From Myxococcaceae bacterium (GTDB taxonomy: Bacteria; Myxococcota; Myxococcia; Myxococcales; Myxococcaceae), in contig JAXLYB010000002.1 in assembly GCA_046351675.1 (NCBI GenBank), positions 192,001 through 256,000 of the forward strand: a DNA stretch of 64,000 nucleotides, read 5' to 3'. This document shows, piece after piece, positions 4,835 to 49,559 of the stretch (position 1 is its first letter; each line of letters starts with the position of its first letter). Both the position numbers and the translations under genes were made by a program. Below the pieces are notes generated by a model that saw only the letters and a program-made list of their open reading frames with translations, searched no databases and was not told the DNA's origin.

Positions 4835-4847
4835 GATTGGTCCGCCT

Positions 4848-4886
4848 AGCACACTGTCCCCCTCTCCCCCTGGGGAGAGGGTCGGG
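4848..4886. repeat. REP-like element copy (plus a partial inverted half at 4912-4925)
   Basis: cctctccccctggggagagggtcggggtgagggg. Confidence 0.8.
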
Positions 4887-4953
4887 GTGAGGGGTGAACC
4901 GGATCCGTTGAACTGCGCGACTCCCCTCACCCCAGGCGCTAGAGACCGCGCTC

Positions 4954-6111
4954 ATGAACTCCCTGCGCGCGTCGCTCGCCCTGCTCGCCCTCGTCGCCCT
5001 CGCGTGCGGCGAGCCGCCAGGCACCAACCCCGACAGCGGCATCACCAACGACGCAGGCAACACCCCCGACGACGCGGGCACGACCACCGACGCGGGCACG
5101 ACCACCGACGCGGGCACGACCACCGACGCGGGCACGACCACCGACGCGGGCACGAACGACGCCGGCACCGACGCCGGCACCACCTGCCCGCCCGGCCTCC
5201 GCTGCGTGACGACCTTCCCCTTCACCGACACCGCCGACACCACCGACCCCTCACTCCCCGCCGCGCTCGACCACTATTCCTGCTCGCCGAGCACCAACGA
5301 GACGGGCCGCGAGGTGAAGTGGCGCGTCGAGCTCCCCGTCGCGGGCTTCTTGAGCGCCGCGGTGACCGAGATGAACGGCGTCGACGTCGACGTGCACCTG
5401 CTCTCGGCCCTCGACGCGAACGCCTGCCTCGCGCGCGGCAACTTCCACGCGAAGGCCGACGTCGGCCCCGGCACCTATTACGTGGTCGTCGACACCTTCA
5501 CCTCGGGTGGCGTGCCGCAGGCCGGCGCCTTCACCGTCGACATCGGCTTCACCGTGCCCTCGCAGGGCGCGTGCGCGATGGACACCGGCACGCTCTCGCG
5601 CGTGAACGACATGGGCAACTCGCTCGCCATGCCCGCCACCGGACCGATGGCCGTCGAGGCGCACCTCGTGACGCAAGACGAGCCACCGCCCTACCCCGCG
5701 ACCGCGACCGACGAACTCCTCGCGCACTACGCGTTGTCACAGGCGCGCACCGGCTTCGTGATGCACCGCACGCAGGTCTGGGCCCCGCTCGAGGGCGGCA
5801 CCTTCTACGGCGCGGGCATCGGCAGCCCCACGCTGTTCCCCGTCGAGCACGAGGGTTGGTACGTGAACATGTACTGGACCAGCGCGGCGCGGCCCGCGCG
5901 CGGCACGAAGATGATTCTGCGCACGCCCGGCTCGAGCCGCGCGGTGGTCGTCGCCGCGGGCTACGAGACCGGCCCCGGCGACCTCTCGTTCATCGGCGGC
6001 ACGCCCGAGGAATCGCACTTCTACCTGGGCACCGGCCACGGCAGCGTGCTGCAGCTGGGCATCGCGACTGATCAATCGCTGCCGTTCGGCCCGCGCACCT
6101 GCGCGCCCTGA
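4954..6111 (+). CDS. lipoprotein with (TTTDAG)n low-complexity linker and a pre-peptidase-C-terminal-like beta domain
   Basis: Lipobox LVALAC-G. Five tandem DAGTTT repeats. A Cys-containing beta-rich C-terminal domain. Confidence 0.7.
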   Translation: MNSLRASLALLALVALACGEPPGTNPDSGITNDAGNTPDDAGTTTDAGTTTDAGTTTDAGTTTDAGTNDAGTDAGTTCPPGLRCVTTFPFTDTADTTDPSLPAALDHYSCSPSTNETGREVKWRVELPVAGFLSAAVTEMNGVDVDVHLLSALDANACLARGNFHAKADVGPGTYYVVVDTFTSGGVPQAGAFTVDIGFTVPSQGACAMDTGTLSRVNDMGNSLAMPATGPMAVEAHLVTQDEPPPYPATATDELLAHYALSQARTGFVMHRTQVWAPLEGGTFYGAGIGSPTLFPVEHEGWYVNMYWTSAARPARGTKMILRTPGSSRAVVVAAGYETGPGDLSFIGGTPEESHFYLGTGHGSVLQLGIATDQSLPFGPRTCAP

Positions 6112-6112
6112 C

Positions 6113-7705
6113 TCACTTCTTGAGGAAGTTGCGTTCCCACTCGTTGAGCGAGCGCTCGACCTTCGCGCGCTTGGGCACCGTGTCGGCCGCCGCGGCGTCG
6201 ATGCGGTAGCGCCCGAGGAACTGCAGCGCCGTCGGGTCGAGGTTCTTCTTCTTCTTCGCGCGCGCCTCGAGCTTCGCGATGCGGTCCTTCAGCTGCTTCA
6301 CCGTCGCCGGCGGAGGCGGGTTCTTCTTGTTCGGCACGCGGTCGACCACGTCGTCCACGCCCGCGTCAGCCTCGTCGTCGTCAGCCGTGCCCGCGTCGAC
6401 CACCGCGGCGACCGCGGGGCCCGCATCGAGAACTTCAGCGACCGCCGGAGCTCCCGCGTCGACCACCGCCACCGGCGCCGGGGGCCCCGCATCGACGACC
6501 ACCGCGGGCACGTCGGCCACGGGCGGCACCACGGGCTCGGGTTCCTTCGGGCGCGTCAGCACCCACACCGCCGCCGCCACCACCAGGCCGAGCGCGACCA
6601 CCAGGCCCACGCCGCGGTAGTTGCGCCGCCGCTCGACGACGCTCAGCTCACCGGGCGTGTGCGTCGACACGTCGGGCAGCGACGGCGCGGGCCGCGACGG
6701 CTCGGGCGCGGGCGCCATCTGCTGGAACATCGGCGGCAGGCGCGGGGCCGAGCTGCCGGGCACGAACGCCGCGTGCTCGCGCGAGCTGCGCGGCCGCGGC
6801 GCACCCAGCGCCATCACCACGTCTTCGAGCCCGGCGCGCACCTCGTCGACGGTCTGCGGGCGGCTCTCCGGCGCCTTCGAGAGCATGCGCAGCACGAGCG
6901 CGTCGAGCTCGTCGGGCAGGTCGGGCACCAGCGACTTCGGCGACGGCGGCGCGCTGCTGACGTGCGCGACCATCACGTCCATCGGCGTCGCGCCGATGAA
7001 GGGCATGCGCCCGGTGATGAGCTCGAAGGCCACCACGCCCAGCGCGTAGATGTCGGACCGCGGAGAGATGGCCAGCCCGCGCGCCTGCTCCGGCGCCATG
7101 TAGTCGGGCGTGCCGCTCACCGTGGCCTGGTTGGTCTGCTTGGTGTTGCCGTCGAGCCCCAGCGCGCGCTTGGCGAGCCCGAAGTCGAGCAGCTTCAAGA
7201 AGCGCGTCCCGTCGGCCTGGCGGCAGACGAAGATGTTCGACGGCTTCAGGTCGCGGTGGATGACGTTGGCCCGGTGCGCGGCCGAGAGCGGCGCGCACAT
7301 CTCGAGCAACAGCTCCATCGCGGTGAGCAGCGGCACGCGCCCGCCCTGCTTGTGGAGCCACGCGTCGAGGGGCTCGCCCTCGAGGTACTCCATGATGATG
7401 TACGGGCGGCCGTCGGGCAGCTGGCCCAGCGAGAAGATGTCGATGATGCCGCGGTGGCCGATGGCGTTGACCGACTCGGCCTCGGCGATCAGCCGCTGCA
7501 CCTGGTGCTCGTCACCGGCGACTTCGGGCTTGAGCACCTTGATGGCGACCCGCTTCTTGATGAGCGGGTGCACGCCCCGGTACACGACACCCATCCCCCC
7601 CTCGCCGACGGGCTCGAGAATCTCGTACTCCCCCACGTGCTGACCCAGGAGTGGATCGCGCGTCAGCGGAATCGGCGGGGGAATGGGTGGGGGTTGCTCT
7701 GCCAC
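6113..7705 (-). CDS. serine/threonine protein kinase with a proline-rich linker and C-terminal TM/extracytoplasmic tail
   Basis: Hanks motifs are all present: GEGGMGVVY, AIK, HRDLKPSNIF, DFG and GTPDYMAPE. Confidence 0.9.
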   Translation of the reverse strand: MAEQPPPIPPPIPLTRDPLLGQHVGEYEILEPVGEGGMGVVYRGVHPLIKKRVAIKVLKPEVAGDEHQVQRLIAEAESVNAIGHRGIIDIFSLGQLPDGRPYIIMEYLEGEPLDAWLHKQGGRVPLLTAMELLLEMCAPLSAAHRANVIHRDLKPSNIFVCRQADGTRFLKLLDFGLAKRALGLDGNTKQTNQATVSGTPDYMAPEQARGLAISPRSDIYALGVVAFELITGRMPFIGATPMDVMVAHVSSAPPSPKSLVPDLPDELDALVLRMLSKAPESRPQTVDEVRAGLEDVVMALGAPRPRSSREHAAFVPGSSAPRLPPMFQQMAPAPEPSRPAPSLPDVSTHTPGELSVVERRRNYRGVGLVVALGLVVAAAVWVLTRPKEPEPVVPPVADVPAVVVDAGPPAPVAVVDAGAPAVAEVLDAGPAVAAVVDAGTADDDEADAGVDDVVDRVPNKKNPPPPATVKQLKDRIAKLEARAKKKKNLDPTALQFLGRYRIDAAAADTVPKRAKVERSLNEWERNFLKK

Positions 7706-37249: not shown

Positions 37250-37294
37250 GGCCCCAAGTGTAGGGCAGGACACGGTTTGCTAGCGTGCGCCGCG

Positions 37295-38527
37295 ATGCAG
37301 CTGGACCGCATTCGGCAGAAGGTGTGGGCGGGTGAACGCCTCAACGACCAGGAGCTCGACGAGCTCCAGCGCGCCGCCCAACGCGAAGGTGGTCCCACGC
37401 TGCGCACCACCGTGGCCCAGGCGCTGATCAACGCCGACGCCGTGGTGCAGGCGCTGCCGATTCTCGAGGCCGTGCGCCGCGACTTCCCGCGCGACGTGCA
37501 GGCCCACCTCGCGCTCGGCCGCGCGCTCTGTTCCCTCGAGAAGTGGAACGAGGCCGTCGCGCCGCTCGAGCAGGCGCTCGCGCTGCAGCCCGGCGACCCC
37601 GAGCCGATGAAGGCGCTCGCCGTCGTCGCGCTGCGCCGCGGGGAGTTCGCCCGCGCGCGCTCGCTGCTCGACGCGGTGCTCGCCGACGACCCGCTCGACG
37701 ACGAGGCGCGCGTGCTGCTGGCCGAGCTCGAAGAAGACACGCCGCCCGCCACGGTGCCGACGCTCGACGACTTCTCCCGCGCGCTCATCGAGCGGCTGCG
37801 CGCGCAGAGCACGCCGCACGTGGTCGCCAAGGGACAGCTCACGATTCGGCTCGGCCGGGGCGCGGTGGCGCGCTTCGACCTGCGCGGGCTCTTCGAAGAG
37901 GCGATGCAGGTCGGCCGCGGCGTCGACGAGGCGGTGACGCTGGTGGCGCGCGACCTCGCCGAGCGCACGCTGGGGTTGCCGCCGGGCAAGGTGCCGCTGT
38001 TGGCGCGCGTGCTGCCGGTGCTGCGCGACGCGCAGTTCCTCGAGCGCGGCGAGGGCAGCGTGCACCGCGAAGGTCCCGCGTCGCTGCTCATCTTCTATGC
38101 GCTCGATGATCCCGAGGCGGTGCTCTACGTGCCCGAGGGCCTGGTGCGCGCGCTGAGCATCAGCGCCGAGGAGCTCGACGAAGCCGCGTGGAAGAACCTC
38201 GAGACGCGCGGCGCCGAGGTGCGCTCGCTCGAGCTCGAGCAGGGCGCGCTGCGGCTGTCGAACTCGGTGACGGGGCTGTGGGCGCTCGCGCACGGTGATG
38301 GCCACGACGCGGCGCGGCTGCTGACGCGCTCGCACCAGCAGAAGATGGTCGAGGCCGCGGGCGACGGGCCGCTGCGCGTGTACCTGGGGCTGCGCGAGCT
38401 GGTGTTGTTCTGCCGCGAGTCAGACGACGCGAACGTGGCGAAGCTCGACGGGCTCGAAGCCGCGCGCGAGGGCATCAGCGGTGCGTGGCGCCTGCACGAA
38501 GGCAAACTGACCTCAGTCCCCGAATAA
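37295..38527 (+). CDS. TPR repeat protein (only the 3' 410 codons of the 662-aa track ORF)
   Basis: MQLDRIRQKVWAGERL... followed by LALGRALCSLEKWNEAVAPLEQALALQP-type TPR units. Confidence 0.6.
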   Translation: MQLDRIRQKVWAGERLNDQELDELQRAAQREGGPTLRTTVAQALINADAVVQALPILEAVRRDFPRDVQAHLALGRALCSLEKWNEAVAPLEQALALQPGDPEPMKALAVVALRRGEFARARSLLDAVLADDPLDDEARVLLAELEEDTPPATVPTLDDFSRALIERLRAQSTPHVVAKGQLTIRLGRGAVARFDLRGLFEEAMQVGRGVDEAVTLVARDLAERTLGLPPGKVPLLARVLPVLRDAQFLERGEGSVHREGPASLLIFYALDDPEAVLYVPEGLVRALSISAEELDEAAWKNLETRGAEVRSLELEQGALRLSNSVTGLWALAHGDGHDAARLLTRSHQQKMVEAAGDGPLRVYLGLRELVLFCRESDDANVAKLDGLEAAREGISGAWRLHEGKLTSVPE

Positions 38528-38586: not shown

Positions 38587-40170
38587 TCACTCAACGACCC
38601 CGCCCCGCGCCGTCACCAACGCCCGAAGCTCCTCGAGCTGCGCCCCCTTCACATTCCGCCCCGGCCGAGCGACCAACTTCCGCCCCGCCGGCACCACCCC
38701 GAGCACCTCGCGCACGGTGACGAGCACCCGCTCAATCCACCCCGGATTCGGCGGCACCTCGAGTTCGAGCGCCACCTCGTTCGCCGTCACCCGCACCTCG
38801 AGCCCCCAGTCCTTCGGCTCGTAGTGCAGCACGAACACCGCCACCTCGGGCACCCCGGTCGCGAGCGCCCGCGGGATGAGCGACGGCCCGCCCTCGCGCG
38901 CCCACAAGCCGACGCCGAACACCAACCGCAACGAGCGCAGCCCCCGCACCACGGGGAGCGCGAGCACCTCGCTGAGCAGGTGCGGGTACGCCACGCCCGA
39001 CAGCACCTCGAGCTTCGTGAAGCGCGGCAGCTGAGCCAGCGCGTCGTCATCGAGCCGCACGCCCTTCACGCTGCGCAGCCCGGGATGCCGCCCCGCCAAT
39101 TGCGTAAAGGTGCAGCTCGGATCCTCGAGGGAGGTCAGCGACTTCATGACCGGGTGCATGGTGATCTCGTAGCCGCCGCGGCCGGCGAGCTGCTCCACCG
39201 TCGCCCAGTGGGGATCTCCCGCGACCTTCTCGAGCTCGAGCTGCAGTGACTTCGCGTTGCCCTGCTTCAGCTCGACGCGCGAGAGGAAGCCGCGCGAGAA
39301 CTCCGCGTCCTTGATCACCCCCGCCAGCGGACCCACCCACTCCGCGAGGTGCGCGCTGATCAGCTCCTTCACGCGCTTCTTCTGCGCCGGGGTCGCCGTG
39401 CCCGCACGCTCGGCCTCCTGCAGCGTCATCAACTCCCCGCGCGGGTCTCCCGCCTCGAGGAGCGCATCCATCAACACCCGCCGCGCCGCCTCATCGAGCG
39501 GGTTCTGCAGCACCGCGTCGATCAACCGCGTGGTCGACTTCGCCTCGTGCGCGGAGCGCTCCTTCGCCGCCGCCGAGCTGACCACGCCCTTCGCGGCCGC
39601 GACCTTCGCCAGCACCTCGGCGCTCAACGTGACCGAAGGCAGCTCGAGTCCCTTCGCGAGCCGCTCGTAGTGCCCCTTCAAGAACGCCTGCCACGGCACG
39701 CTGTCCTTCCACGTGGCGCTGGTCGCGGTGAGCGACTCCCACGCGGCCACGTCACGCAGGTGCCCCGCGAGCGCGACCAGCTGCGTCCAGAACGGCCGCG
39801 CGCCGGTGCTGGTGAACGGAGGATTCGCGTAGGTGTGCGCGACGAAGCGGTCGAGGCGCGGGTCGGGCGCGAACTTCACGAGCGCCGTCACCCGGTCGCG
39901 CAGCACGGTCGCCGAGCCGCCCGCCATCGCCGCGAGCAACGCCGAGAGGTCTCCCGGTCGCTTCTTCGCCGCCACGTCGTCCCACGTCTTCGCGTCGACC
40001 TTCGTGCCCACCGTCTCGCCCAGCGCGACGAGTGCATCGGCCAGCTCGCGATGCGGGGCCTGCCGCCACGCGTCCAGCAACGCCGCCACCGCGTCCGCCG
40101 GCTTGCCTGCCTGCTGGGCCTTCTCCGCCGCCGCCACCAGCGCCTCGACGCTCTTCGCCGCTTTCGCCAT
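38587..40170 (-). CDS. hypothetical protein with TIGR02996-like 'repeat-companion' domain (paralog of 20061-21221)
   Basis: AARRVLMDALLEAGDPRGELMTLQEAE. Length 527 aa. Confidence 0.6.
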   Translation of the reverse strand: MAKAAKSVEALVAAAEKAQQAGKPADAVAALLDAWRQAPHRELADALVALGETVGTKVDAKTWDDVAAKKRPGDLSALLAAMAGGSATVLRDRVTALVKFAPDPRLDRFVAHTYANPPFTSTGARPFWTQLVALAGHLRDVAAWESLTATSATWKDSVPWQAFLKGHYERLAKGLELPSVTLSAEVLAKVAAAKGVVSSAAAKERSAHEAKSTTRLIDAVLQNPLDEAARRVLMDALLEAGDPRGELMTLQEAERAGTATPAQKKRVKELISAHLAEWVGPLAGVIKDAEFSRGFLSRVELKQGNAKSLQLELEKVAGDPHWATVEQLAGRGGYEITMHPVMKSLTSLEDPSCTFTQLAGRHPGLRSVKGVRLDDDALAQLPRFTKLEVLSGVAYPHLLSEVLALPVVRGLRSLRLVFGVGLWAREGGPSLIPRALATGVPEVAVFVLHYEPKDWGLEVRVTANEVALELEVPPNPGWIERVLVTVREVLGVVPAGRKLVARPGRNVKGAQLEELRALVTARGGVVE

Positions 40171-40268
40171 GGTGCGGTTCTACCGTTCGCGAAGACCCCG
40201 AATTCACTCAAAGTGCACTGCTCGACTTCCCACTTTTCGAGGCTCGGCCGTCATCGAGGGCGAATCGT

Positions 40269-40781
40269 GTGAACGACCATGGAACGCTCTCGACCTGGTA
40301 CGAGAAATACGGCGCGCTCGTGCATCGCCGCTGCCGCACGCTCATGGGCAACGACGCCGACGCGAACGACGCGCTCCAGGAGACGTTCTTGCGCGCGCAC
40401 CGCACCCGAAAGGACGACGTGATGCAGCCGCTGCCCTGGCTCTACGCCATCGCCACGCGCATCTGCTTCGACGCGCTCGAGTCGAGCAAGCGGCGACGGC
40501 CGACCGATGACTCGGTGCTCACGCGCCTCAAGGAATTCGTCGGGCTGGCCGAGGCGCGCCATGCGTCGGTGGAAGACAAGCTCTGCATGGGCTCGGCGTT
40601 GGTGACGCTCGAGGCGACGACGCGCGAGATGGCGTTGCTCCACTGGGTCGACGGCATGACGCAGGAAGAGGTGGCGCAGCAGACGGGGTATTCGCGGAAG
40701 ACGGTCGGCGTGAAGTTGCGTGAGGCCGAGGTGAAGTTGCGCGGGCTGTATGGCGCCGAGCTGACGGAGGTGTCGACGTGA
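40269..40781 (+). CDS. ECF-family sigma-70 factor (GTG start; 170 aa)
   Basis: Region 2 (YEKYGALVHRRCRTLMGNDADANDALQETFLRAH) and region 4 (MTQEEVAQQTGYSRKTVGVKLREAEVKLR) are present. Confidence 0.8.
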   Translation: MNDHGTLSTWYEKYGALVHRRCRTLMGNDADANDALQETFLRAHRTRKDDVMQPLPWLYAIATRICFDALESSKRRRPTDDSVLTRLKEFVGLAEARHASVEDKLCMGSALVTLEATTREMALLHWVDGMTQEEVAQQTGYSRKTVGVKLREAEVKLRGLYGAELTEVST

Positions 40782-40792
40782 AGACCCAGAAA

Positions 40793-40833
40793 CTCCCTCT
40801 CCCCTCGAGAGGGGAGAGGGTCGGGGTGAGGGG
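40793..40833. repeat. REP-like element copy (direct orientation)
   Basis: ctccctctcccctcgagaggggagagggtcggggtgagggg. Confidence 0.8.
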
Positions 40834-40875
40834 CGCGCCGCAGCAAACAATGTTTTCGCGGAAGACGGTGTCGAC

Positions 40876-41634
40876 ATGAGCGCTGAAGGCCCCTCACCCC
40901 AGCCCTCTCCCCTCTCGAGGGGAGAGGGAGAGCTTGCCCCGACCCGCCGCGAAGGCTGCCCCGCGCGCGTCACGCTCGAGAGCGCCTCAGCCGGAGACTG
41001 GGCCGATGGAATCCGCGCCCACGTCGACGCCTGCCCGCACTGCCGCGAACAACTCCAGGCGCTCGAAGCCCACCGCGCCGCCTTCCTCGCCGCGCGCCCG
41101 ACCGAGCGATTCCTCGGTCAACTCGACGCCCGCGCGCAGAAGAAGCCCGCCCGGCGCGCCTGGCTCCCCGCACTCGGCCTCGTCGCCACCGCCGCCGTCG
41201 CGCTCTTCGTCCTCCTGCCGCGCAACCCGGATCCTACCGGTGTGAACTTCAAGGGCCTCTCGAGCATCGCGCTCAAGCGTGGCGACCGCGTCGAGACTGC
41301 CGCCTCGTCCACGAAGCTCGCCCCCGGCGACGCCCTGCGCTTCTCGGTGCACGCCCCACGCGACGGCTTCGCAGTGGTGCTCGAGCGCGACGGCGCCGGC
41401 AAGGTGACCATCGTCGCGCCCTTCGCCGCGACCGCGCCGCTGGCGGTGAGCGTGGGCACGACCGACCTCCCCGACTCCGCGGTGCTCGACGACGTGCGCG
41501 GCGCCGACACCTTCTTCACCGTCTTCTCCGAGCAGCCCTTCGAGCTGAAGCCACTCGTCGACGCGCTCGAGCGCGGAGAATCACCGCGCTGCCCCGGCTG
41601 CACCGTGGAGGTGTCGAGCTTCGACAAGCCGTGA
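40876..41634 (+). CDS. zf-HC2 (ChrR/RsrA-like) anti-sigma factor with one TM helix
   Basis: HVDACPHCREQL zinc-finger motif, and TM WLPALGLVATAAVALFVLL. The first 20 codons are REP-derived (SPQPSPLSRGEGE). Confidence 0.7.
   Translation: MSAEGPSPQPSPLSRGEGELAPTRREGCPARVTLESASAGDWADGIRAHVDACPHCREQLQALEAHRAAFLAARPTERFLGQLDARAQKKPARRAWLPALGLVATAAVALFVLLPRNPDPTGVNFKGLSSIALKRGDRVETAASSTKLAPGDALRFSVHAPRDGFAVVLERDGAGKVTIVAPFAATAPLAVSVGTTDLPDSAVLDDVRGADTFFTVFSEQPFELKPLVDALERGESPRCPGCTVEVSSFDKP
40890..40928. repeat. REP-like element copy (inverted orientation), overlapping the 5' end of the anti-sigma ORF
   Basis: cccctcaccccagccctctcccctctcgaggggagaggg. Confidence 0.8.
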
Positions 41635-43202
41635 TGCGCGCCTTCATCCTCCGTCTCGCCGTGGCGCTCATCCTCTCGTGGGGAGCGACGAGCTTTGCGG
41701 GCGAGGCGCCGGTGCGGCTGCTGCTCGCGTTCGGCAGCGACCTGGGCGACCCCGACGAGGCGCCGCTCTCGCACGCCGAGGAAGACGCCCAGCGCCTGCG
41801 CGACCTCTTCACCGAGCTGGGCAGCGTGGAGTCCTCGCGCGCCCTCGTGCTCCGCCGCGCCGCCGCCGACAAGGTGCGCGAGCGCTTCGCCGAGCTGCAG
41901 GGCCGCGTCGCCGAGCTGAAGGCCGCGGGCAAGCGCGTCGAGCTGGTGGTCTTCGCCTCGGCGCACGGCAAGGGCGGCGCATTGCACCTCGCCGGCACAC
42001 GCCTCGAGTTGGACGAATTGCGCGAGCTCGCCCGCCGCTGCGGCGCCGACCTCACCATCACCATCGTCGACGCGTGCGAGGCCGGCCTCTCGCGCGCGAA
42101 GGGCTCGCAGAAGGGCCCCGCGTACCAGCTCACGGTGACGCCGCCGTCGGTGAAGGGCGAGGTCTTCATCGCGTCGTCGGGCGCGAGCGAGGCCGCGCAG
42201 GAATGGGAAGCGCTCTCGGGCTCGCTCTTCACGCACCACCTGATCAGCGGCCTGCGCGGAGACGCCGACGGCGACGGCGACGGCACCGTCACCCTGATGG
42301 AAAGCTACGCGTACGCCGAGCACCGCACGGTGGCCAACAGCCTCGACCGCGGCCAGCACCCGGAGTTCGCCGTGAAGCTCGAGGGCGCCAGCGACGTGGT
42401 GCTCACCCGCCTCGACCAGGGCCGCGCGAAGGTGGTGCTCGACGAGAACCTCGAGGGCCGCTTCGTGCTCGTCTCGCAGCCGCGGCCCGACGTGGTGACC
42501 GAGGTGAGCAAGGTGCGCGGCAAGCCGCTGACGCTCGCCGTGCCCGCGGGCCGCTACGTGCTGCGGCAGGCGCGCGGCTTCTCGGTGGCGATGCAAGACG
42601 TCGAGCTCCCGTACGGAGGCACCTCGCGCGTCGACGGCAAGCGCTTCGTCACGCGCGACTACGCCGAGGTCGCGCTGAAGGGCGGCGCGCTGGAGTTCCA
42701 CCCGCAAGCCATCCAGCTCGGCGCCGCGCTCTCACTGCCGCCCGAAGACGGCACGCCCGCACGCTGGGAAATGCAGGGCGCGTGGCGGTACACGGCCGGC
42801 CGCGCGTGGCTCCTCGTCGGCGGCGGGTGGGGTACCGCGCGCTTTCGCGGCGTCGGGCTGACGACTCGCGACAACCGTTTTGCCGTGCGAGTGCAGGGCG
42901 GCGGCCGCTTCTGGCTCGGGCCGTTGAGCTTGATGCCCGGGCTGGAGCTCGAAGGCTCCGTGCTGAGGCAGGATTCCGAGCGCGACCAGGAGGCGGAGAT
43001 TCTCCGCAGCTATCCCCCGCTGCCGATTCGCGTGACGGCGGGTCTCGGGGTCGGTCCCGTGGTGCGCGGTGAGCTCCCGCTGCCCGGGCCGCTGTTCGCC
43101 ACGCTCTCCGCCGGGGCCTCGCTGCGTTGGCTGCCGCTGGTCGACGCGCCGGCCTTCTCCTTCGGGGCCCATGCGGACGTGGGGCTGGGGGTGCGCTTTT
43201 GA
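41631..43202 (+). CDS. secreted caspase-like (clan CD peptidase C14/C13-like) domain protein with a C-terminal outer-membrane beta-barrel-like domain
   Basis: Signal peptide MMRAFILRLAVALILSWGATSFA. His motif VVFASAHGKGG and Cys motif TIVDACEAG (compare caspase QACxG and legumain EACESG). The C-terminus has alternating beta strands and ends in Phe (GLGVRF). ATGA overlap with the anti-sigma. Confidence 0.65.
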   Translation: MMRAFILRLAVALILSWGATSFAGEAPVRLLLAFGSDLGDPDEAPLSHAEEDAQRLRDLFTELGSVESSRALVLRRAAADKVRERFAELQGRVAELKAAGKRVELVVFASAHGKGGALHLAGTRLELDELRELARRCGADLTITIVDACEAGLSRAKGSQKGPAYQLTVTPPSVKGEVFIASSGASEAAQEWEALSGSLFTHHLISGLRGDADGDGDGTVTLMESYAYAEHRTVANSLDRGQHPEFAVKLEGASDVVLTRLDQGRAKVVLDENLEGRFVLVSQPRPDVVTEVSKVRGKPLTLAVPAGRYVLRQARGFSVAMQDVELPYGGTSRVDGKRFVTRDYAEVALKGGALEFHPQAIQLGAALSLPPEDGTPARWEMQGAWRYTAGRAWLLVGGGWGTARFRGVGLTTRDNRFAVRVQGGGRFWLGPLSLMPGLELEGSVLRQDSERDQEAEILRSYPPLPIRVTAGLGVGPVVRGELPLPGPLFATLSAGASLRWLPLVDAPAFSFGAHADVGLGVRF

Positions 43203-43264
43203 CTTCCCACAATTTTCGAGTCGGCCGTCTTGAGGGCGCAGCGCACCTTCACTCACTCTCGAGG

Positions 43265-45082
43265 ATGACCGACATGACGTTCCGCAAAGCACTCTTGACC
43301 GCCGCGATGACCGTGCTCGCGGCCTGCCAGCAACCCGGTGGTACGGGCCCGAAGTACCAGGGCGAGCCGCTCTTCACCGTGAAGGGCCAGATGGCCCTCA
43401 CCAACGGAGGCACCGCGCCCTCGGGCCCGATTCGCCTCGCCGTCGCGTGGTACCCCGACTCGTCGTCGAACAGCGCCCCGCGCGCGATGGTCACGCAGGA
43501 CGTGCAGTACCAGGGCACCTTCCCGCTCAACTATTCGTTCTCGTTCTTCGGCGTGCCTCCGGCCGCGGCGCTGAGCGACTACACGAACGCGGGCGCGACG
43601 ACGCGCGCGGCCTTCGGCGTGTTGATGGCGTACGAAGACGTGAACGGCAACGGCCAGCTCGACACCATCGCCGCGGGTGGCAGCCCGGTCGACCACGTGC
43701 TCGGCACCTCGCTGGGTGACCGCTTCAACGGCGACGACACGACGGATCAGATCTACGTCGCGTACGTCGACGGCCAGCCGCCCAGCGACTGGGTCGGCTA
43801 CGGCCCGGGCTTCCAGCTGTGGAAGTCGGGCACCATCGTGCCGGTCAGCACCAGCGTGCCGATTCCGCTGCACCAGACCAACGAGCTCGACTTCTTCGTC
43901 TGCGAGGAGTTCATCAAGAGCTCGGGCTACGGCTACGACCTGCCGTGCCACATCGCGCCGACCGACGGCGTGCGCGTCATCGGCAACGTCTACCGCCTCG
44001 ACGGCGTGGGCTACGCCGGCCTGCGCATCACCGACGGCACCAACGCGCTCAGCAACATGACGGTCGAGGTGAACGGCGCGCCGGTGGCGTTCGACGCCGC
44101 GTCGGGCCTCTACTCCGCGTACGGCACGATTCCCGTCAACGCGCCCGGCCGCAACGTGGTCCGCGTGACGCCACCCGGCCAGCCCGCGCGCGTGTTCGAG
44201 ATGGATGCCCCGGCTGACTTCGCGCTCCAGGCGCCGAGCGATGGCCTGCACCTGCTCGCCGGCTCGCCGCTGAACGTGGGCTGGACCCGCGCCGCCGGCG
44301 CGAGCTTCTACAACGTGGGCGCCAACCGCGTGACGCCGCCCTTCGCGTCGACCAACGTCGAGCTCGTCTACGACCGCGGCCAGGCGCAGCTCGGCACGCA
44401 GCTGAGCGGCTTCACCGACGACGACTACTACCAGCTGCAGGTGGTCGCCTTCGCGCCCAACTACCTGGCGCGTGGCCGCGGCGGCTCGATGGTGAACACC
44501 TCGGCGATTCGCCAGGCCTACGTCGACGTCATCGCGGCGAACGCCGGGCTGCGCGTCGAGGGCACCGTCACGCACTACACGTTCATGGGCCAGTCGTCGG
44601 GCAGCGCGTGGGTGCAGGCGTTCGACGGCATCACCTCGCTGCAGCAGGCCACCGTGACGCTCAACGGCGACGCGCTGACGTGGGACGCGACGTACCAGAT
44701 GTTCGGCCTCGACACGGCCAACGTGCAGCCGGGCGCGTCGTCGACGTTCTCGCTGTCGACCTCGAGCCGCAGCGCGGTGAGCGTGCAGGTCGCGCTGCCC
44801 GGTGACTTCACGGTCGACCCGCTGCCGGCCTCGCAGTCGAAGAGCGCGCCGCTGTCGCTCACGTGGTCGGCGTCGTCGGGCGCGACCTCGTACCGGGTGT
44901 GGGCGGTCGACGCGCAGGGCCAGCAGCTGTTCTTCGACAACGTGGCGGGCACGTCGGCGCAGATTCCCGCGCTGAACGTCGAGGGTGACGTGTACGTGAG
45001 CGTCGCGGCGTACCTCCAGGGCGCTGATCGTCACCTCGCGGGCGCGGTGCAGAAGACCAACGCGGTGACGCTGACGCCGTGA
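43265..45082 (+). CDS. hypothetical lipoprotein (605 aa)
   Basis: MTDMTFRKALLTAAMTVLAAC lipobox, then a beta-rich composition. Confidence 0.7.
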   Translation: MTDMTFRKALLTAAMTVLAACQQPGGTGPKYQGEPLFTVKGQMALTNGGTAPSGPIRLAVAWYPDSSSNSAPRAMVTQDVQYQGTFPLNYSFSFFGVPPAAALSDYTNAGATTRAAFGVLMAYEDVNGNGQLDTIAAGGSPVDHVLGTSLGDRFNGDDTTDQIYVAYVDGQPPSDWVGYGPGFQLWKSGTIVPVSTSVPIPLHQTNELDFFVCEEFIKSSGYGYDLPCHIAPTDGVRVIGNVYRLDGVGYAGLRITDGTNALSNMTVEVNGAPVAFDAASGLYSAYGTIPVNAPGRNVVRVTPPGQPARVFEMDAPADFALQAPSDGLHLLAGSPLNVGWTRAAGASFYNVGANRVTPPFASTNVELVYDRGQAQLGTQLSGFTDDDYYQLQVVAFAPNYLARGRGGSMVNTSAIRQAYVDVIAANAGLRVEGTVTHYTFMGQSSGSAWVQAFDGITSLQQATVTLNGDALTWDATYQMFGLDTANVQPGASSTFSLSTSSRSAVSVQVALPGDFTVDPLPASQSKSAPLSLTWSASSGATSYRVWAVDAQGQQLFFDNVAGTSAQIPALNVEGDVYVSVAAYLQGADRHLAGAVQKTNAVTLTP

Positions 45083-45121
45083 GCTTCAGTTTCGTGAAGT
45101 GATTGGGGCGAGGGAGAGAGC

Positions 45122-45889
45122 GTGCGAGGGTGTCTCATGCCCCGCGCGCTCGTCTTCCTCGCTCTCGTCGTTGGTGCCGGTTGCAGCCCCGTCTCGCGCT
45201 CGCTGCGTCCCGATGGACTCGAGCTCGTGACGCTGACCCACGACAACACCAACGCGGTGTTGGTGAAGAAGGGCGACGCGGCGTTCCTGTTCGACAGCGG
45301 CTACGAGAAGAACGCTGATCAGCTCGAGGCCGACCTGCGCGCGCTGCCGTTCGACCCGAAGCAGTTGAAGGCCATCATCTTGAGCCACGGGCACGCGGAC
45401 CACGCGGGCGCGGCGCACGTCTTCCACCAGAAGTTCGGCACGCCGGTGGTGCTCGGGTCGGGCGACGAGGCGATGTACGGGAAGGGGTTCAACGAGCCGC
45501 TGTGTCCGACGGGGTTCATCGCGCGGTCGCGGCTCGATACGGATCAGCAAGCGACGTTCGGAGGTTCGGTGGCCGACGTGCTGGTGAGCGAAGACGTCGA
45601 CCTCGAGCCGCTCACCGGAATTCCGGGGAAGGTGCTGCACGTGCCGGGTCACACGAAGGGCTCGCTGGTGGTGTCCGTCGGCGACGTCTTGCTGGTGGGA
45701 GACCTGCTGCGCGGCGACATCGTGGGGTTCGGCGCCGAGACGCACTTCTTCATGTGCGACCTCGAGGAGAACCGCCGCAACATCGCCGCGCTGTTGCGTG
45801 CGCACCCGAAGGCCCAGGTCGTCGTCGTTGGGCACTTCGGGCCGGTCACGCCGCTGGCGGTGCGCCAGCACTTCGAGATCAACGACTGA
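45122..45889 (+). CDS. MBL-fold metallo-hydrolase lipoprotein
   Basis: LSHGHADHAG zinc-binding motif, VPGHTKGS, and lipobox LVVGAGC. Confidence 0.8.
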   Translation: MRGCLMPRALVFLALVVGAGCSPVSRSLRPDGLELVTLTHDNTNAVLVKKGDAAFLFDSGYEKNADQLEADLRALPFDPKQLKAIILSHGHADHAGAAHVFHQKFGTPVVLGSGDEAMYGKGFNEPLCPTGFIARSRLDTDQQATFGGSVADVLVSEDVDLEPLTGIPGKVLHVPGHTKGSLVVSVGDVLLVGDLLRGDIVGFGAETHFFMCDLEENRRNIAALLRAHPKAQVVVVGHFGPVTPLAVRQHFEIND

Positions 45890-45901: not shown

Positions 45902-46318
45902 TCAGACCGTCATCCCGCACAGCAGACATTCCTTCGCACCGACCGGAATCTCGGCGGCGCACACCTGACACCGCTGGCCAACCGCACGAGGCGCGTCGAT
46001 CACCGTCGGCGCCTCGTGGTGATCGAGCGCCACCTTCGGCGCCTCCACCGGACCGCCGCCGCACGCGTCGACCCACCGCGCGAGCTCGGCCTCGGCAGGC
46101 AGCGGCACACCCAACCCGCCCGGCGCGAACGTGAAGCGCATGCGGCCTTCGCTGATCAGCTCGACCGACAGCCGCAGCGGGCCCTGCAAGTTGACGAAGT
46201 GGTACTCGTGGTCGGCGCGCGACGAGACCGACCAGCCGTTCGCCACGAGCCAGTCCTCCGCGCGGTGCAGCGCGCGCAGCCCCGAACCGGCGCGCTCGAA
46301 CTTCAGCTCCCTGGTCAT
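45902..46318 (-). CDS. hypothetical protein with C-terminal zinc ribbon (CQVC...CLLC)
   Basis: 138 aa. Its ATG overlaps the stop of the upstream cytochrome-like gene (ATGA). Confidence 0.5.
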   Translation of the reverse strand: MTRELKFERAGSGLRALHRAEDWLVANGWSVSSRADHEYHFVNLQGPLRLSVELISEGRMRFTFAPGGLGVPLPAEAELARWVDACGGGPVEAPKVALDHHEAPTVIDAPRAVGQRCQVCAAEIPVGAKECLLCGMTV

Positions 46319-47697
46319 CGCAAAGCCTCGAGCACGCGCGTCTTCTCCTCGTCCGTCAGCACGCCCGCGAAGGGCGGCGGCATCACCAGCACATCTTCGG
46401 GCGGGCGCTGCACGCGGTCGAGCGCAAGTGCACGTTCCTCGGCGGTGAGGGCTCCCAGTCGCGTCACGTCGAAGCGGGCGCGCGTGAGCGCCTGGTTGCG
46501 CGCGGGCTGGTGGCACTGGCCGCACGATTCCATCAGCAGCGCGGCGCCGGTCGCGCCGGCCGAGGGACGCACCTGGGTGGCGCGCTCGACCTCCTCGGTC
46601 ATCAGGTGGCGCACGTCGGGCACGTCGGTGCGCGGGCCGCTGATCAACGCCTGCTTGAACTTCGCGGCGAGCGCCGACTGCGCGGTCGTGTCGGTCACAC
46701 GCAGCTCCTTCCACGGCACGGGGATGAACTGACCCGCGCGCGCCCCGGCGACCAGCGCGTCGTACGTCGGGCTCGCGCCGGTCGATTGCAGCTCGAGGTT
46801 GATGACGAAGCCGGGGAACTCGTTGGGCTGCGTCGCGGAGTCTTCCTGCGCGAGCAACTGGCTCAGCACGGCCGGGTCGCTCGACTGCCGAATGAGGCCC
46901 GCGGGAATCGCGCCGTAGCGCTCGGTGTCGACGTGCGCCGAGAAATAATCGTCGACCAACTGGCCGCCGCTCACCGTCTCGCTCGCCGGCGCGAGGAAGT
47001 GCGTCCACGGGAAGCGGAGTTCCTGCATGCGGAGCAACCGCGGCGTGCCCGGCCCTTGTGGTTGGTGGCAGCGGAGGCAGTCGAGCGCGGTGTTCTCGAG
47101 GTCGACGTCTTCGTAGAGCTCGACGGCCTTCCAGTTGCGCTCGGTGTCTTCGGTCAGCGTGTCGGCCGCGGTGCAGGTGGCCGTGAGGTCGCACGCGCGC
47201 GTGAAGGCGAGCACGAAGAAGCGCAGGGCCTGGGTCGTCTCGTCGCGCGTCGCGAGCTCGACGATGGGCTCTCCGCGCGTGAAGCCCGCGGCGACGAAGC
47301 GACGGCGTGCGTACGGCTCGCGTGGGACGCCGTCGAAGACGAGGGCGCGGGGGTTGAGTGGGTTGACGCTGCGGATGCCGAGCGCGGTGGAGTGCGCGGT
47401 CAGCGCCACCGTCACGCCGGTCTCGCCCGGGACGAGGCCGAGCGCGCGGTAGACGGCGAGGAGTCCGTCGGGGACGGGGCGCGGGTCCTGGCAGAACCAG
47501 CGCGTGACGCGGTCGTCGTTGCCGCGTGCGCAGAGCGTGTCGCGCGAGGGCGGCGGGAGGAAGCGGCGGAGTTCGCTCGGGGTCGCGATGCCGACCGGTG
47601 GAGCGCCCGCGTCGAGTACGACCTGATCAACCGCGCAGGCATTGATCAGCACCACGCAGAGCGCGAGTCCGGCGCGATGGAAGTGACGACGTTCCAC
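46315..47697 (-). CDS. putative di-haem c-type cytochrome lipoprotein (GTG at 47697; ORF-track start 47790 reads through a REP)
   Basis: Two CxxCH motifs (CLRCH, CGQCH) and lipobox LCVVLINAC. Confidence 0.55.
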   Translation of the reverse strand: MERRHFHRAGLALCVVLINACAVDQVVLDAGAPPVGIATPSELRRFLPPPSRDTLCARGNDDRVTRWFCQDPRPVPDGLLAVYRALGLVPGETGVTVALTAHSTALGIRSVNPLNPRALVFDGVPREPYARRRFVAAGFTRGEPIVELATRDETTQALRFFVLAFTRACDLTATCTAADTLTEDTERNWKAVELYEDVDLENTALDCLRCHQPQGPGTPRLLRMQELRFPWTHFLAPASETVSGGQLVDDYFSAHVDTERYGAIPAGLIRQSSDPAVLSQLLAQEDSATQPNEFPGFVINLELQSTGASPTYDALVAGARAGQFIPVPWKELRVTDTTAQSALAAKFKQALISGPRTDVPDVRHLMTEEVERATQVRPSAGATGAALLMESCGQCHQPARNQALTRARFDVTRLGALTAEERALALDRVQRPPEDVLVMPPPFAGVLTDEEKTRVLEALR

Positions 47698-47718
47698 GCG
47701 ATGAGCATAGCGTCCCTG

Positions 47719-47757
47719 TCTCCCTCTCCTCTTCAGAGGAGAGGGTCGGGGTGAGGA
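47719..47757. repeat. REP-like element copy (direct)
   Basis: tctccctctcctcttcagaggagagggtcggggtgagga. Confidence 0.8.
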
Positions 47758-47780
47758 GTAACCCTCGAGCGTTTCTGCGT

Positions 47781-47818
47781 CTCCCCTCACCCCAACCCTC
47801 TCCCCAGCGGGGAGAGGG
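47781..47818. repeat. REP-like element copy (inverted)
   Basis: tcccctcaccccaaccctctccccagcggggagaggg. Confidence 0.8.
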
Positions 47819-49535
47819 GGCCACGACCAGGGCGCTCGATGATCACGTCATCCACCACCAGCGCATCCACCGGGTGCGACAAGAAGAACGCCAGCGCATC
47901 GGCCTCCGTCGCGACGATGGGCTCGCCCTGCCCATTGAGCGACGTGTTGAGCAGCACCGGCACGCTCGTCTCCCGCGCAACCCGCGCGAGCAGCGCCCCG
48001 ACCAGCGAGTCCTCCCGCACCGTCTGCAGCCGCGCCGTACCATCCACGTGCGTCACCGCCTCGAGCTTCGCCCGCGCCTCGCCCTTCACCTCAGCCACCG
48101 TGGTCATGAACGGCCCAAGCCGCGGCGCGAAGGGCCCGAAGAAGTCCGCGGCCCGCGCCTCCGCCACCATCGGCGCGAAGGGCCGAAACGGCTCGCGGCG
48201 CTTCACGACGCGATTGAGGCGCTCCTTCACCGCGACCGGCGTCGGCAACGAGAGCAGGCTGCGCTGCCCCAGCGCACGCGGCCCCCACTCGAAGCGGCCC
48301 TGTACCCACGCGAGCACCTGCCCCTGCATCAGGCGCTCCGCCGTCGCCTCGACCACGTTCTCGACGCGCTGCACGCGCAACCCGAGCCCCTTCGCCACCT
48401 CGCTCGCCACCGAGCCCTGCACGCCCGTGCCCCACGCCGCGTGCGCGAAGCCCGTGCGCGCCTCGCCCTTCTGCGCCGCCGCGAGCAACGCCGCGCCGAG
48501 CGCCCCGCCGGCGTCACCGGCCGCTGGCTGCACCCACAAGTCGGAGAAGCCCGCCTCGCGGAAGAGCCGCGCGTTGGCGACCGCGTTCAGCGCCACGCCG
48601 CCCGCGAGGCAGAGCGCGTCAGCCCCGGTGAGCACCTTCGCGCGCTTCGCCAGCGCCAGCAGCGCGTCTTCGAGCACCGCCTGCAACGTGGCGGCGATGT
48701 CGGCGCCGCGCTGATCAGCCTCCGGCACCGCGCCGCCCTCGAGCGACCACGGCGTGCCCGGCATCCGTCGCGGCCCCAGCAGCGCCTCGAGCTTCGAGGA
48801 GAACCCGACCTCGGTGTTGGTGTGCGCGTCGAAGTACTCGAGCCCGAGCGTGAACTGCCCGTCGCCCCGCACCTGGAGCAGTCGCTCGAACTCCGCGCGG
48901 AACTTCGGCGTGCCGAACGCCGCCAGGCCCATCACCTTGTACTCGCCCTCGTTCACCTCGAAGCCGAGGTACGCGGTGAGCGCCGAGTAGAGCAGGCCGA
49001 GCGAGTGCGGGAAGCCGATGCGCTCCTTGCACTCGAGCGTGCGGCCCTCGCCGAGCCACAGCGCGGTGCTCGTGTCTTCGCCTACTGCGTCGACGGTGAG
49101 GATCGCCGCGCGCTCGAACGGTGACGTGAAGAAGGCGCTCGCGGCGTGGGAGGCGTGGTGCTCGCCGTGCGAGATGCGCGCGCGGTCGATGCCGAGCCCC
49201 GAGCTCAGCGCGTCGAGCACCCACACCTTGCCGCCCAGCTGAGAGGCGAGCGCGCGGGGGAATTGCCGCAGCGACCGGGGGAAGGTGCGCAGCATCGACA
49301 GCAGGACTCGTTCGAGCTTCCCGTACGGGTTCTCGTAGAAGACGACCTGGTCGACTGCGCCGGGCTCGAGCTTGCCGACCGCGAGGCATGCGCGTGCTGC
49401 GCGCAGTGGCAACGAGGCGTCGTTCTTGATGCGCGAGAAGCGCTCTTCCTGCATCGCGGCGACGAGTTGGCCGTCGACGAGGAGGGCCGCGGCTGCGTCG
49501 TGGTAGTTCGCGCTGATGCCGAGGATGACGCTCAT
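47787..49535 (-). CDS. carbamoyltransferase (NodU/CmcH family)
   Basis: MSVILGISANYHDAAAALL... and HGEHHASHAASAFF. Length 582 aa. The 3' end runs into a REP (ERPGRGPLSPLGRGLG). Confidence 0.85.
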   Translation of the reverse strand: MSVILGISANYHDAAAALLVDGQLVAAMQEERFSRIKNDASLPLRAARACLAVGKLEPGAVDQVVFYENPYGKLERVLLSMLRTFPRSLRQFPRALASQLGGKVWVLDALSSGLGIDRARISHGEHHASHAASAFFTSPFERAAILTVDAVGEDTSTALWLGEGRTLECKERIGFPHSLGLLYSALTAYLGFEVNEGEYKVMGLAAFGTPKFRAEFERLLQVRGDGQFTLGLEYFDAHTNTEVGFSSKLEALLGPRRMPGTPWSLEGGAVPEADQRGADIAATLQAVLEDALLALAKRAKVLTGADALCLAGGVALNAVANARLFREAGFSDLWVQPAAGDAGGALGAALLAAAQKGEARTGFAHAAWGTGVQGSVASEVAKGLGLRVQRVENVVEATAERLMQGQVLAWVQGRFEWGPRALGQRSLLSLPTPVAVKERLNRVVKRREPFRPFAPMVAEARAADFFGPFAPRLGPFMTTVAEVKGEARAKLEAVTHVDGTARLQTVREDSLVGALLARVARETSVPVLLNTSLNGQGEPIVATEADALAFFLSHPVDALVVDDVIIERPGRGPLSPLGRGLG

Positions 49536-49559
49536 GGGCGTCGCACCCGGGCCGGCCAC

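Follow-up and report, generated by a model that had tools for sequence, protein, structure and literature searches.

Organization of the locus

The DNA analysed here, hereafter the window, is a stretch of 64,000 nucleotides (nt) from a Myxococcaceae bacterium, positions 192,001 to 256,000 of contig JAXLYB010000002.1 in assembly GCA_046351675.1. Between 40269 and 45889, in a region of ~70% G+C, it carries five plus-strand genes that code for a sigma factor of the extracytoplasmic function (ECF) type, an anti-sigma factor, a caspase-like protease, a lipoprotein and a hydrolase of the metallo-beta-lactamase (MBL) fold. An earlier note on this DNA had read these genes as one five-gene unit, and all five are present at the positions that it gave. 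However, comparison with related loci indicates that the conserved unit consists of four genes, those for the sigma factor, anti-sigma factor, protease and lipoprotein (hereafter the cassette), as the MBL gene is never syntenic with them. The genes and their associated sequence features are listed below, with lengths in amino acids (aa) and coordinates of the window.

40227..40252, plus strand: ECF-type promoter-like motif P1, TTCCCACTTTTCGAGGCTCGGCCGTC, 17 nt 5' of the sigma start codon
40269..40781, plus strand: ECF sigma-70 factor gene, 170 aa, GTG start
40793..40930, no strand: inverted pair of repetitive extragenic palindromic (REP) elements, arms 40793-40834 and 40889-40930, 42 nt, 95% complementary
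40876..41634, plus strand: anti-sigma factor gene, 252 aa
41631..43202, plus strand: caspase-like protease gene, 523 aa
43204..43229, plus strand: ECF-type promoter-like motif P2, TTCCCACAATTTTCGAGTCGGCCGTC, within the 62 nt that separate the protease gene from the lipoprotein gene
43265 or 43274..45082, plus strand: lipoprotein gene, 605 aa, or 602 aa from the ATG at 43274
45122..45889, plus strand: MBL-fold hydrolase gene (PF00753, E=2.5e-24, 86.8 bits)

The start codon of the sigma gene agrees with those of its orthologues, and the protease has a counterpart of 100% identity in a metagenome-assembled genome of the Myxococcaceae.

A caspase-fold protease with an outer membrane barrel

The protease opens with a signal peptide (aa 1-23), followed by a caspase domain (aa 28-260) that scores 25.7 bits against Pfam family PF00656 (Peptidase_C14), for which the cut-off is 21.4. 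His112, in the motif SAHG (41964-41966), and Cys149, in the motif DACEAG (42075-42077), are invariant in 85 homologues down to 25% identity, as are Asp147, Glu191, Asp213, Glu224 and Gln242. Asp147 is an acidic residue two before the catalytic Cys, which we take to be the counterpart of the D-x-C of metacaspases. An AlphaFold2 model built from an 85-sequence alignment (predicted local distance difference test score, pLDDT, 92; predicted template modelling score, pTM, 0.78) starts with the helix of the signal peptide, continues with an alpha/beta domain (aa 28-260) and then a beta-sandwich (aa 266-343; 42426-42659), and ends in eight strands (aa 359-522). Compared with the PDB using Foldseek, the N-terminal domain matches caspases 1, 3, 7 and 8, legumain and metacaspase 9, with probability 1.0 and E=6e-8 to 3e-6. 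Scans with Pfam and TIGRFAM-type profiles gave no TPR or CHAT match in the protease. On the basis of the model, we regard the protein as a Peptidase C14 enzyme of the clan CD fold that has an intact His/Cys dyad and is predicted to be active.

The C-terminal barrel (aa 359-523; 42705-43199) is modelled as eight long antiparallel strands, and the last residue is Phe523. For these 165 aa, Foldseek returns NspA (1p4t; 2.5e-7), OmpA, Ail and OmpX, with probability 1.0 and E=1e-7 to 1e-5, and a distant relative of the protease, P0087, is matched by Pfam OMP_b-brl (PF13505) with E=7.7e-8. The C-terminal residue is F, L, W, Y, M or I in nearly all complete related protease genes. Profiles for the caspase domain, the sandwich and the barrel all match in most of ~80 related loci; the barrel profile finds nothing in a dozen distant ones, and in some of these the sandwich profile does not match either. 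Among 1.84 billion proteins the sandwich-plus-barrel module is found in 91 cluster representatives, and in the full-length hits it is nearly always located at about residues 260-520 of a ~520-aa protein, behind a ~260-aa N-terminal domain. The sandwich (aa 262-350) was also considered as a relative of DUF4384, the domain family discussed below for the anti-sigma factor, and this was rejected (hhalign probability 0.65%). The signal peptide, the clan CD His/Cys dyad and an outer membrane barrel ending in Phe had been read from the sequence before, and each of them is borne out, the two folds by structure prediction and the dyad by its invariance in homologues. None of the three outcomes that the earlier note had named as refuting its reading was thus observed. 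The barrel itself, however, is ~165 aa long and not 190, and the sandwich precedes it.

In the model, the barrel has long loops of 9, 3, 15 and 8 residues on its far face and short turns of 2, 6 and 4 residues on the face that bears the N-terminus, which fits the standard topology. Solved 8-stranded barrels (OmpA, OmpX, NspA and Ail) have both ends in the periplasm and a closed lumen, and a barrel of eight strands is too narrow for exporting a passenger domain. Given a barrel of the OmpA/OmpX type and a linker of only ~15 residues between the sandwich and the barrel, the caspase and sandwich domains are predicted to lie in the periplasm, so that the caspase domain most likely shares its compartment with the DUF4384 part of the anti-sigma factor. 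The same features speak against the surface exposure of the protease that had been suggested earlier. As far as we found, a caspase domain that is anchored to the outer membrane by an OmpA/OmpX-like barrel is an apparently undescribed architecture.

Two loops of the catalytic domain deserve mention. The sole disordered stretch of the protease, aa 151-174, comes right after Cys149 and contains a conserved [RK]-x-K157-G158; in caspases, the maturation cut falls in the loop after the catalytic Cys. From Asp147 and the conserved K-G motifs, our guess is that the protease would prefer a basic residue at P1. The second loop, aa 213-224 (DGDGDGTVTLME; 42267-42302), is located between two helices and fits EF-hand loop positions 1, 3, 5, 6, 8 and 12, with Asp213, Gly218 and Glu224 invariant or nearly so and a weak EF-hand_5 match in one relative. 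This EF-hand-like loop suggests that the protease may be under calcium control.

The sigma factor and the anti-sigma factor

The sigma factor matches Sigma70_r2 (aa 11-75; E=1.9e-12) and Sigma70_r4_2 (aa 106-157; E=2.3e-6), both above cut-offs, as well as TIGR02937 (E=5.4e-20; 71.7 bits against a cut-off of 42.9), and by these profiles it is an ECF (group 4) sigma-70 factor. The anti-sigma factor contains Cys28 and H49-x3-C53-x2-C56 (HVDACPHC; 41020-41043), as read from its sequence, and both Cys28 and the HxxxCxxC motif are kept in myxobacterial orthologues. One membrane helix (~aa 96-114; 41161-41217) separates this part from a C-terminal domain of ~135 aa, in which the DUF4384 part comprises ~aa 148-215 (41317-41520). 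DUF4384 (PF14326) is matched by 21 of 24 orthologous periplasmic domains (E<=0.01, best 1e-10), and several of the anti-sigma orthologues are named DUF4384 proteins by NCBI; by homology, the periplasmic domain is assigned to DUF4384. Ten residues past the membrane helix is a Lys-Gly pair, K126-G127 (41251-41256), of which the Lys is present in at least 90% of the sequences and the Gly in 100%.

In other proteins, DUF4384 is fused in cis to the caspase domain in 23 of 473 cyanobacterial orthocaspases (PMC8283722), and it is the C-terminal domain of some Csx30 proteins (bioRxiv 10.1101/2022.08.17.504292). Near the other end of the anti-sigma factor, ~10 residues from the C-terminus, is a C-x-G-C pair (C239xxC242; 41590-41601) that is conserved together with a terminal [FL]-x-K-x-P in orthologues of the Myxococcaceae and Archangiaceae and is absent from more distant orthologues; the two Cys may form a disulfide in the periplasm or bind a metal.

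Conservation of the gene order

Related loci were collected from one genome per species with a profile built from 12 closer protease sequences, and their neighbouring genes were identified by tblastn with the proteins of the window. In nearly all of the 77 loci obtained, which include Archangium, Pyxidicoccus, Myxococcus, Vitiosangium, Anaeromyxobacter and Polyangiales, the order is sigma factor, anti-sigma factor, protease. Fibrobacterota loci have the sigma and protease genes together, with the intervening gene looked at in one of them (L055) only. Within this locus (3031-7590 of a Fibrobacterota metagenome-assembled genome) lie, in this order, a lipoprotein-like gene, a sigma gene, an anti-sigma gene and a protease gene with a barrel; its anti-sigma factor is without the HxxxCxxC motif and has no Pfam DUF4384 match.

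A scan that begins with the protease carries a risk of circularity, and a second approach was therefore started from distant anti-sigma homologues of 28-38% identity. The order of sigma factor, anti-sigma factor and Peptidase_C14 protein, with 4-nt overlaps, was found in all three of the contigs that could be evaluated; the fourth contig of the set stops after the anti-sigma gene. Taken at the level of gene order, an ECF sigma factor followed by a DUF4384 anti-sigma factor and a caspase-barrel protein is an arrangement that recurs across the Myxococcota, and the linkage of these genes is both tight and ancient.

A promoter-like motif repeated before the sigma and lipoprotein genes

A 29-nt direct repeat places the same sequence before the sigma gene (40224-40252) and between the protease and lipoprotein genes (43201-43229), and within it are the motifs P1 and P2. 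Their core, TTCCCA-N14-17-CGTC (CGTC or CGGTC), has 3 matches in the 64-kb window, where 0.62 are expected. The third of these, on the minus strand inside the protease gene (42747-42770), was taken as chance. Of 40 orthologous loci, 26 have the pattern TTCCCA-N14-17-[CG][CGA]GT[CT] no more than 300 nt upstream of the sigma gene, and it is also found upstream of lipoprotein homologues at 20 orthologous positions, against a background frequency of 0.018 per kb. The motif travels with the lipoprotein gene even when this gene is displaced by ~1.5 kb (L028, L032 and L044). The earlier note had asked for ECF-dependent promoters upstream of both 40269 and 41631; a copy is present before the first of these, whereas none was found directly upstream of the protease gene at 41631. 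In a clade consisting of L005-L015 and L039, the motif is located ~2.9 kb 5' of the sigma gene, ahead of an extra lipoprotein gene. This distribution is the pattern expected for an autoregulated ECF promoter with a small regulon, and the conserved motif together with the conserved synteny lends support to the dedicated ECF control that had been proposed for the locus.

The extra lipoprotein of the Myxococcaceae clade (L008, 1957-4803; also L005, L007, L009-L011, L013-L015 and L039) has ~920 aa and 10 Big_2 repeats, and its gene terminates just ahead of the sigma gene. In L029-L031, L035 and L038 (~4500-4770), a minus-strand TTCCCA...GTC copy is found near the plus-strand copy that precedes the sigma gene, either back-to-back with it or no more than ~70 nt upstream, as in GTGGGAACCCGACTTCCCA (L030 and L031). 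Such a pair on opposite strands may be a divergent promoter for the upstream gene. Between 40000 and 46200 of the window, no sigma-70-type promoters were found, and the 2 terminator-like sites detected there are no excess over chance for intrinsic terminators.

The lipoprotein

The fourth gene encodes a 605-aa lipoprotein, as previously annotated, with the canonical lipobox LAAC; the ATG at 43274 has a better Shine-Dalgarno spacing than the start at 43265. Its AlphaFold2 model (pLDDT 90) begins with a domain (aa 34-230) that contains a DVNGNGQLD loop and the conserved Cys210 and Cys225, and continues with four Ig/FN3-like sandwiches; the protein has no Pfam match. The gene directly follows the protease gene in L002-L041, and a profile search shows the protease gene to have a homologue as its neighbour in nearly all of L001-L047, excluding L016 and L042, in which the contigs end first; in L045-L047 the homologue is located 5' of the sigma gene. 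The lipoprotein-like gene of L055 is missed by the profile search and reaches a pairwise E of 0.017 with the window lipoprotein through the DxNGNxxLD loop only. A 964-aa protein on a Logan contig, P0135, appears to be a fusion of protease and lipoprotein in which the last third of the barrel is missing; as a genuine architecture it was set aside, being probably a frameshift or an assembly artefact.

A REP pair at the sigma/anti-sigma junction

A gap of 94 nt separates the sigma gene from the anti-sigma gene in the window; among relatives, the stop codon of the former overlaps the start codon of the latter (ACATGA or GCGTGA). Two REP copies in opposite orientation occupy the junction, as had been noticed before, and the second of these lies in frame within the N-terminal tail of the anti-sigma factor, where it encodes GPSPQPSPLSRGEGE, residues that the orthologues are without. 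The junction sequence GGTGTCGAC(G/A)TGA occurs once on each side of the first REP (40769-40781 and 40866-40878), and 40839-40869 repeats a stretch of the sigma gene, 40675-40705, at 84% identity. This looks like the footprint of an insertion that separated two genes that overlap in relatives. Folded as RNA, the pair (40775-40945) gives one hairpin of -115 kcal/mol (z=-10.6), with the anti-sigma start codon (40876) inside it, and the hairpin could alter the ratio of sigma factor to anti-sigma factor in this organism.

Because the REP pair has split the first junction, only the overlap between the anti-sigma and protease genes survives in the window. The translational coupling that had been assigned to all three genes therefore holds for the second pair and not for the first. 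The overlap reads GTGATG (41631-41636) and not ATGA as had been stated, with the stop TGA at 41632-34 and a start at either the GTG at 41631 or the ATG at 41634.

The pair belongs to a REP-like family with the core GAGAGGGNNGGGGTGAGGGG, of which there are 17 copies in the window against 0.15 expected. They span 109-59379, with examples at 4875, 10351, 12685, 15700, 38552, 47739/47783 and 49689 and further sites at 59149/59199 and 59310/59360, and inverted pairs in intergenic spacers are frequent.

Neighbouring genes

The MBL-fold gene that follows the lipoprotein gene has no homologue in any of 78 related loci and was rejected as a member of the cassette; it is an unrelated neighbour. The PF00753 match confirms its fold as annotated earlier, but its description as a lipoprotein is weakened by a non-canonical lipobox, VGAGC. 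The other genes on either side, including the 527-aa gene upstream, were never found conserved with the cassette when the related loci were searched by tblastn:

37289-38527, plus strand: TPR protein
38587-40170, minus strand: 527-aa protein, weak TIGR02996 match
45902-46450, minus strand: small protein with a C-terminal zinc ribbon
46315-47790, minus strand: 491-aa protein, weak CXXCH and cytochrome c matches
47787-49559, minus strand: carbamoyltransferase, Carbam_trans_N and Carbam_trans_C

Proposed mechanism and alternative explanations

We tentatively propose, at a little under an even chance, that the four genes form a self-regulated envelope signalling cassette in which the outer membrane-tethered protease is the site-1 protease for the anti-sigma factor. 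In this scheme, for which we infer the periplasmic topology, the cleavage partner, the cleavage site and the signal, the ECF sigma factor would be held at the inner membrane by the single-pass anti-sigma factor, with its cytoplasmic zinc-type HxxxCxxC motif and its periplasmic DUF4384 domain. The caspase-fold protease would be exported by means of its signal peptide and anchored by the 8-stranded barrel, so that the catalytic domain, with its EF-hand-like calcium loop, and the beta-sandwich would hang into the periplasm. In response to an envelope signal, the tethered protease would recognise DUF4384 and cut the periplasmic part of the anti-sigma factor, with the juxtamembrane Lys126-Gly127 as the candidate site, and this site-1 cleavage would be followed by the action of an RseP-type intramembrane protease and of cytoplasmic proteases that free the sigma factor. 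The sigma factor would then transcribe its own operon and the lipoprotein gene from the two TTCCCA-N14-17-CGTC/CGGTC promoters, and the lipoprotein may be a sensor, a modulator or a co-substrate.

Several observations point to the protease as the enzyme that cleaves the anti-sigma factor. The 4-nt overlap between the anti-sigma and protease genes is found in every lineage, and the periplasmic domain of the anti-sigma factor is DUF4384, which is fused to caspase domains elsewhere. Some of the Csx30 proteins that bear DUF4384 bind an ECF-type RpoE and are substrates of Craspase, and in the anti-sigma factor DdvA there is a precedent for a caspase-fold domain that is proposed to cut an anti-sigma linker before RseP acts. 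Finally, K126-G127 of the anti-sigma factor resembles R-x-K157-G158 in the loop of the protease.

Other observations weigh against this proposal or weaken its premises. The zf-HC2 type that had been assigned to the anti-sigma factor agrees with the HxxxCxxC motif and the single membrane helix, but the Pfam zf-HC2 match of the window protein is below threshold (E=0.073; 13.6 bits against a cut-off of 22.2), and so is its DUF4384 match (E=6.7e-4; 20 bits against 27). The periplasmic location of the caspase domain is a prediction from the class of the barrel. Co-transcription suits a protease that is an output of the sigma factor equally well, and the K-G motif may be the mere start of the first DUF4384 strand. 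An enzyme anchored in the outer membrane, with a span of ~8-10 nm to cover, may miss a site 10 residues from the inner membrane, a difficulty that may be eased if the envelope is perturbed or the protease is still uninserted. As to the lipoprotein, its fold search gave just generic FN3, Ig and MG-domain matches and no functional clue, and its profile did not detect it in the more distant loci (Anaeromyxobacter-type and Fibrobacterota).

The distance between the anchor and the juxtamembrane site suggests a further reading, in which enzyme and substrate would meet only under stress and the protease-barrel protein would serve as a trans-envelope "ruler", a self-reporting sensor of outer membrane protein assembly. 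We consider this quite unlikely as it stands. A correctly inserted barrel would keep the caspase domain away from the inner membrane and the anti-sigma factor; failure of barrel assembly, of calcium supply, of periplasmic spacing or of outer membrane integrity would allow the protease to cut the juxtamembrane Lys-Gly, and the sigma factor would fire. If true, the system would be a cysteine-protease counterpart of sigmaE/DegS that is based on the separation of enzyme and substrate across the periplasm.

Among the explanations in which the protease does not cleave the anti-sigma factor, one makes it an output of the system. The anti-sigma factor would sense through DUF4384, and the freed sigma factor would raise the level of a protease whose targets for processing or degradation are envelope proteins, such as the multi-Ig lipoprotein that is co-regulated with it or the Big_2 lipoprotein of one clade. 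A protease within a putatively autoregulated operon, a lipoprotein gene that has its own copy of the motif and adjoins in nearly all of L001-L047, and the motif that precedes the Big_2 lipoprotein gene in L005-L015 and L039, which makes for a regulon rich in candidate envelope substrates, would all be as expected from such an output. What it leaves unexplained is the 4-nt overlap, present even in distant lineages in which no lipoprotein was detected, and the fact that the sensor of the anti-sigma factor is a domain with a history of fusion to caspase domains; we regard it as somewhat unlikely. Signalling could conceivably also proceed without proteolysis in the manner of FecA-FecR-FecI, with the caspase and sandwich domains contacting DUF4384 and the protease activity used for self-maturation only, or dispensable. 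The predicted geometry is indeed that of cell-surface signalling, in which an outer membrane barrel with a periplasmic N-terminal extension is combined with an ECF sigma factor and an anti-sigma factor that crosses the membrane once. However, the invariance of His112, Cys149 and Asp147 in 85 diverse sequences argues for selection on catalysis, no ligand channel or TonB box is known for an 8-stranded barrel, and the Pfam and TIGRFAM-type scans found no FecR or TonB-dependent receptor domains, all of which make this explanation very unlikely.

The earlier note had suggested a surface-exposed caspase-like protease under ECF control as a possible proteolytic, cell-fate or defence module, a reading that would have it act outside the cell, in cell fate or against phage. 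In favour of such a role are the targeting of the protein to the outer membrane, the predatory life of myxobacteria and the part that proteases of the caspase fold play in bacterial defence systems. Nevertheless, an 8-stranded barrel with both ends in the periplasm and a linker of ~15 residues cannot export a folded passenger of 320 aa. When searched with PADLOC, the sigma factor, anti-sigma factor, protease and lipoprotein matched no model, the only hit being a weak one of the neighbouring MBL protein to Avs1a (E=6.9e-4), and the cassette was rejected as a defence system on this ground. The conserved neighbourhood is without visible defence or CRISPR genes, and no cas genes were seen among the called neighbours of the related loci, the whole 64-kb window not having been scanned for CRISPR. 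We give this explanation hardly any probability, and of the explanations considered we prefer cleavage of the anti-sigma factor by the protease.

Relation to known systems

One of the two closest precedents is the DdvS/DdvA pair of Myxococcus xanthus, in which the anti-sigma factor DdvA carries a periplasmic TPR-CHAT caspase-fold domain for which autoproteolysis in trans before RseP has been proposed (PMC11506125). This pair agrees with the predicted layout of the cassette in its myxobacterial ECF sigma factor, in an anti-sigma factor that crosses the membrane once and binds sigma through a cytoplasmic domain of the zinc (Cys/His) type, in a periplasmic caspase-fold His-Cys module and in a proposed near-membrane site-1 cut followed by RseP. 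In DdvA, however, protease and anti-sigma factor are one fused protein, and the protease is a dimeric one of the TPR-CHAT type with an active site that is partly missing, whereas the cassette has a separate C14-type protein with an outer membrane barrel anchor and an EF-hand-like loop, and a small DUF4384 domain on a 252-aa anti-sigma factor. DdvS controls a CBASS/CRISPR defence island, while the only predicted targets of the cassette are itself and lipoprotein genes.

In Craspase, the TPR-CHAT protease Csx29 cleaves Csx30, which binds Csx31 and an ECF-type RpoE (bioRxiv 10.1101/2022.08.17.504292). As proposed for the cassette, the target of this caspase-fold enzyme is a binding partner of an ECF-type sigma factor, and the C-termini of some Csx30 proteins are DUF4384. 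Craspase is cytoplasmic, RNA-guided and linked to Cas7-11, whereas the protease of the cassette is predicted to be exported and membrane-anchored, and the sigma-binding part of the cassette is a classical HxxxCxxC membrane anti-sigma factor. Orthocaspases and metacaspases with fused DUF4384 in cyanobacteria (PMC8283722, PMC7475262) share with the protease the C14 domain, the His-Cys dyad and the association with DUF4384. The acidic residue two before the Cys is a further common feature. The cyanobacterial proteins have DUF4384 in cis and are mostly cytoplasmic; in the cassette, it is the anti-sigma partner that carries DUF4384, and the protease is extended by a signal peptide, an outer membrane barrel and a sandwich domain.

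Two further systems resemble the cassette in layout. FecA-FecR-FecI also has an outer membrane barrel with an N-terminal periplasmic extension that is encoded beside an anti-sigma/ECF sigma pair, but FecA is a 22-stranded TonB-dependent transporter with a small signalling domain, whereas the barrel of the cassette has 8 strands and its extension is a protease; the cassette proteins have no Pfam matches to TonB_dep_Rec, STN or FecR. The sigmaE-RseA-RseB-DegS system of Escherichia coli follows the four-part logic that is proposed for the cassette, in which an ECF sigma factor and an anti-sigma factor that crosses the membrane once are joined by a site-1 protease and a modulator, both in the periplasm, and a link to the status of outer membrane proteins is possible. 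DegS, however, is a PDZ serine protease that is anchored in the inner membrane, in contrast to a clan CD cysteine protease in the outer membrane, and RseA and RseB have no homology to the cassette proteins. The cassette thus falls outside the DdvA, Craspase, FecARI and RseA/DegS families, whose defining features it lacks, although by analogy it plausibly works like them.

In the published literature we found no study of this protease family, or of an outer membrane or periplasmic caspase linked to an ECF sigma factor, and the main text of an ECF classification paper (PMC7826278) mentions neither caspases nor DUF4384. The earlier statement that there is no characterised equivalent is accurate for the protease family and too broad for the principle, since DdvA/DdvS and Craspase already couple a caspase fold to an ECF sigma factor.

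The controlled proteolysis of anti-sigma factors is central to envelope signalling in bacteria, and the periplasmic site-1 proteases that are known to us are serine proteases or metalloproteases. Caspase-fold proteases have entered the anti-sigma field only recently, with Craspase-Csx30-RpoE in 2022 and DdvA in 2024, and in these cases the cleavage or its consequences are still partly hypothetical. In the cassette, the protease, its candidate substrate, the sigma factor and the read-out promoter are separate small genes or elements, making the cleavage step genetically tractable, and the cassette is present in cultivable myxobacteria, among them Archangium, Pyxidicoccus, Myxococcus, Vitiosangium and Anaeromyxobacter. 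If the proposed cleavage is true, it would provide the first function for DUF4384, as a handle or a substrate for caspase-like proteases.

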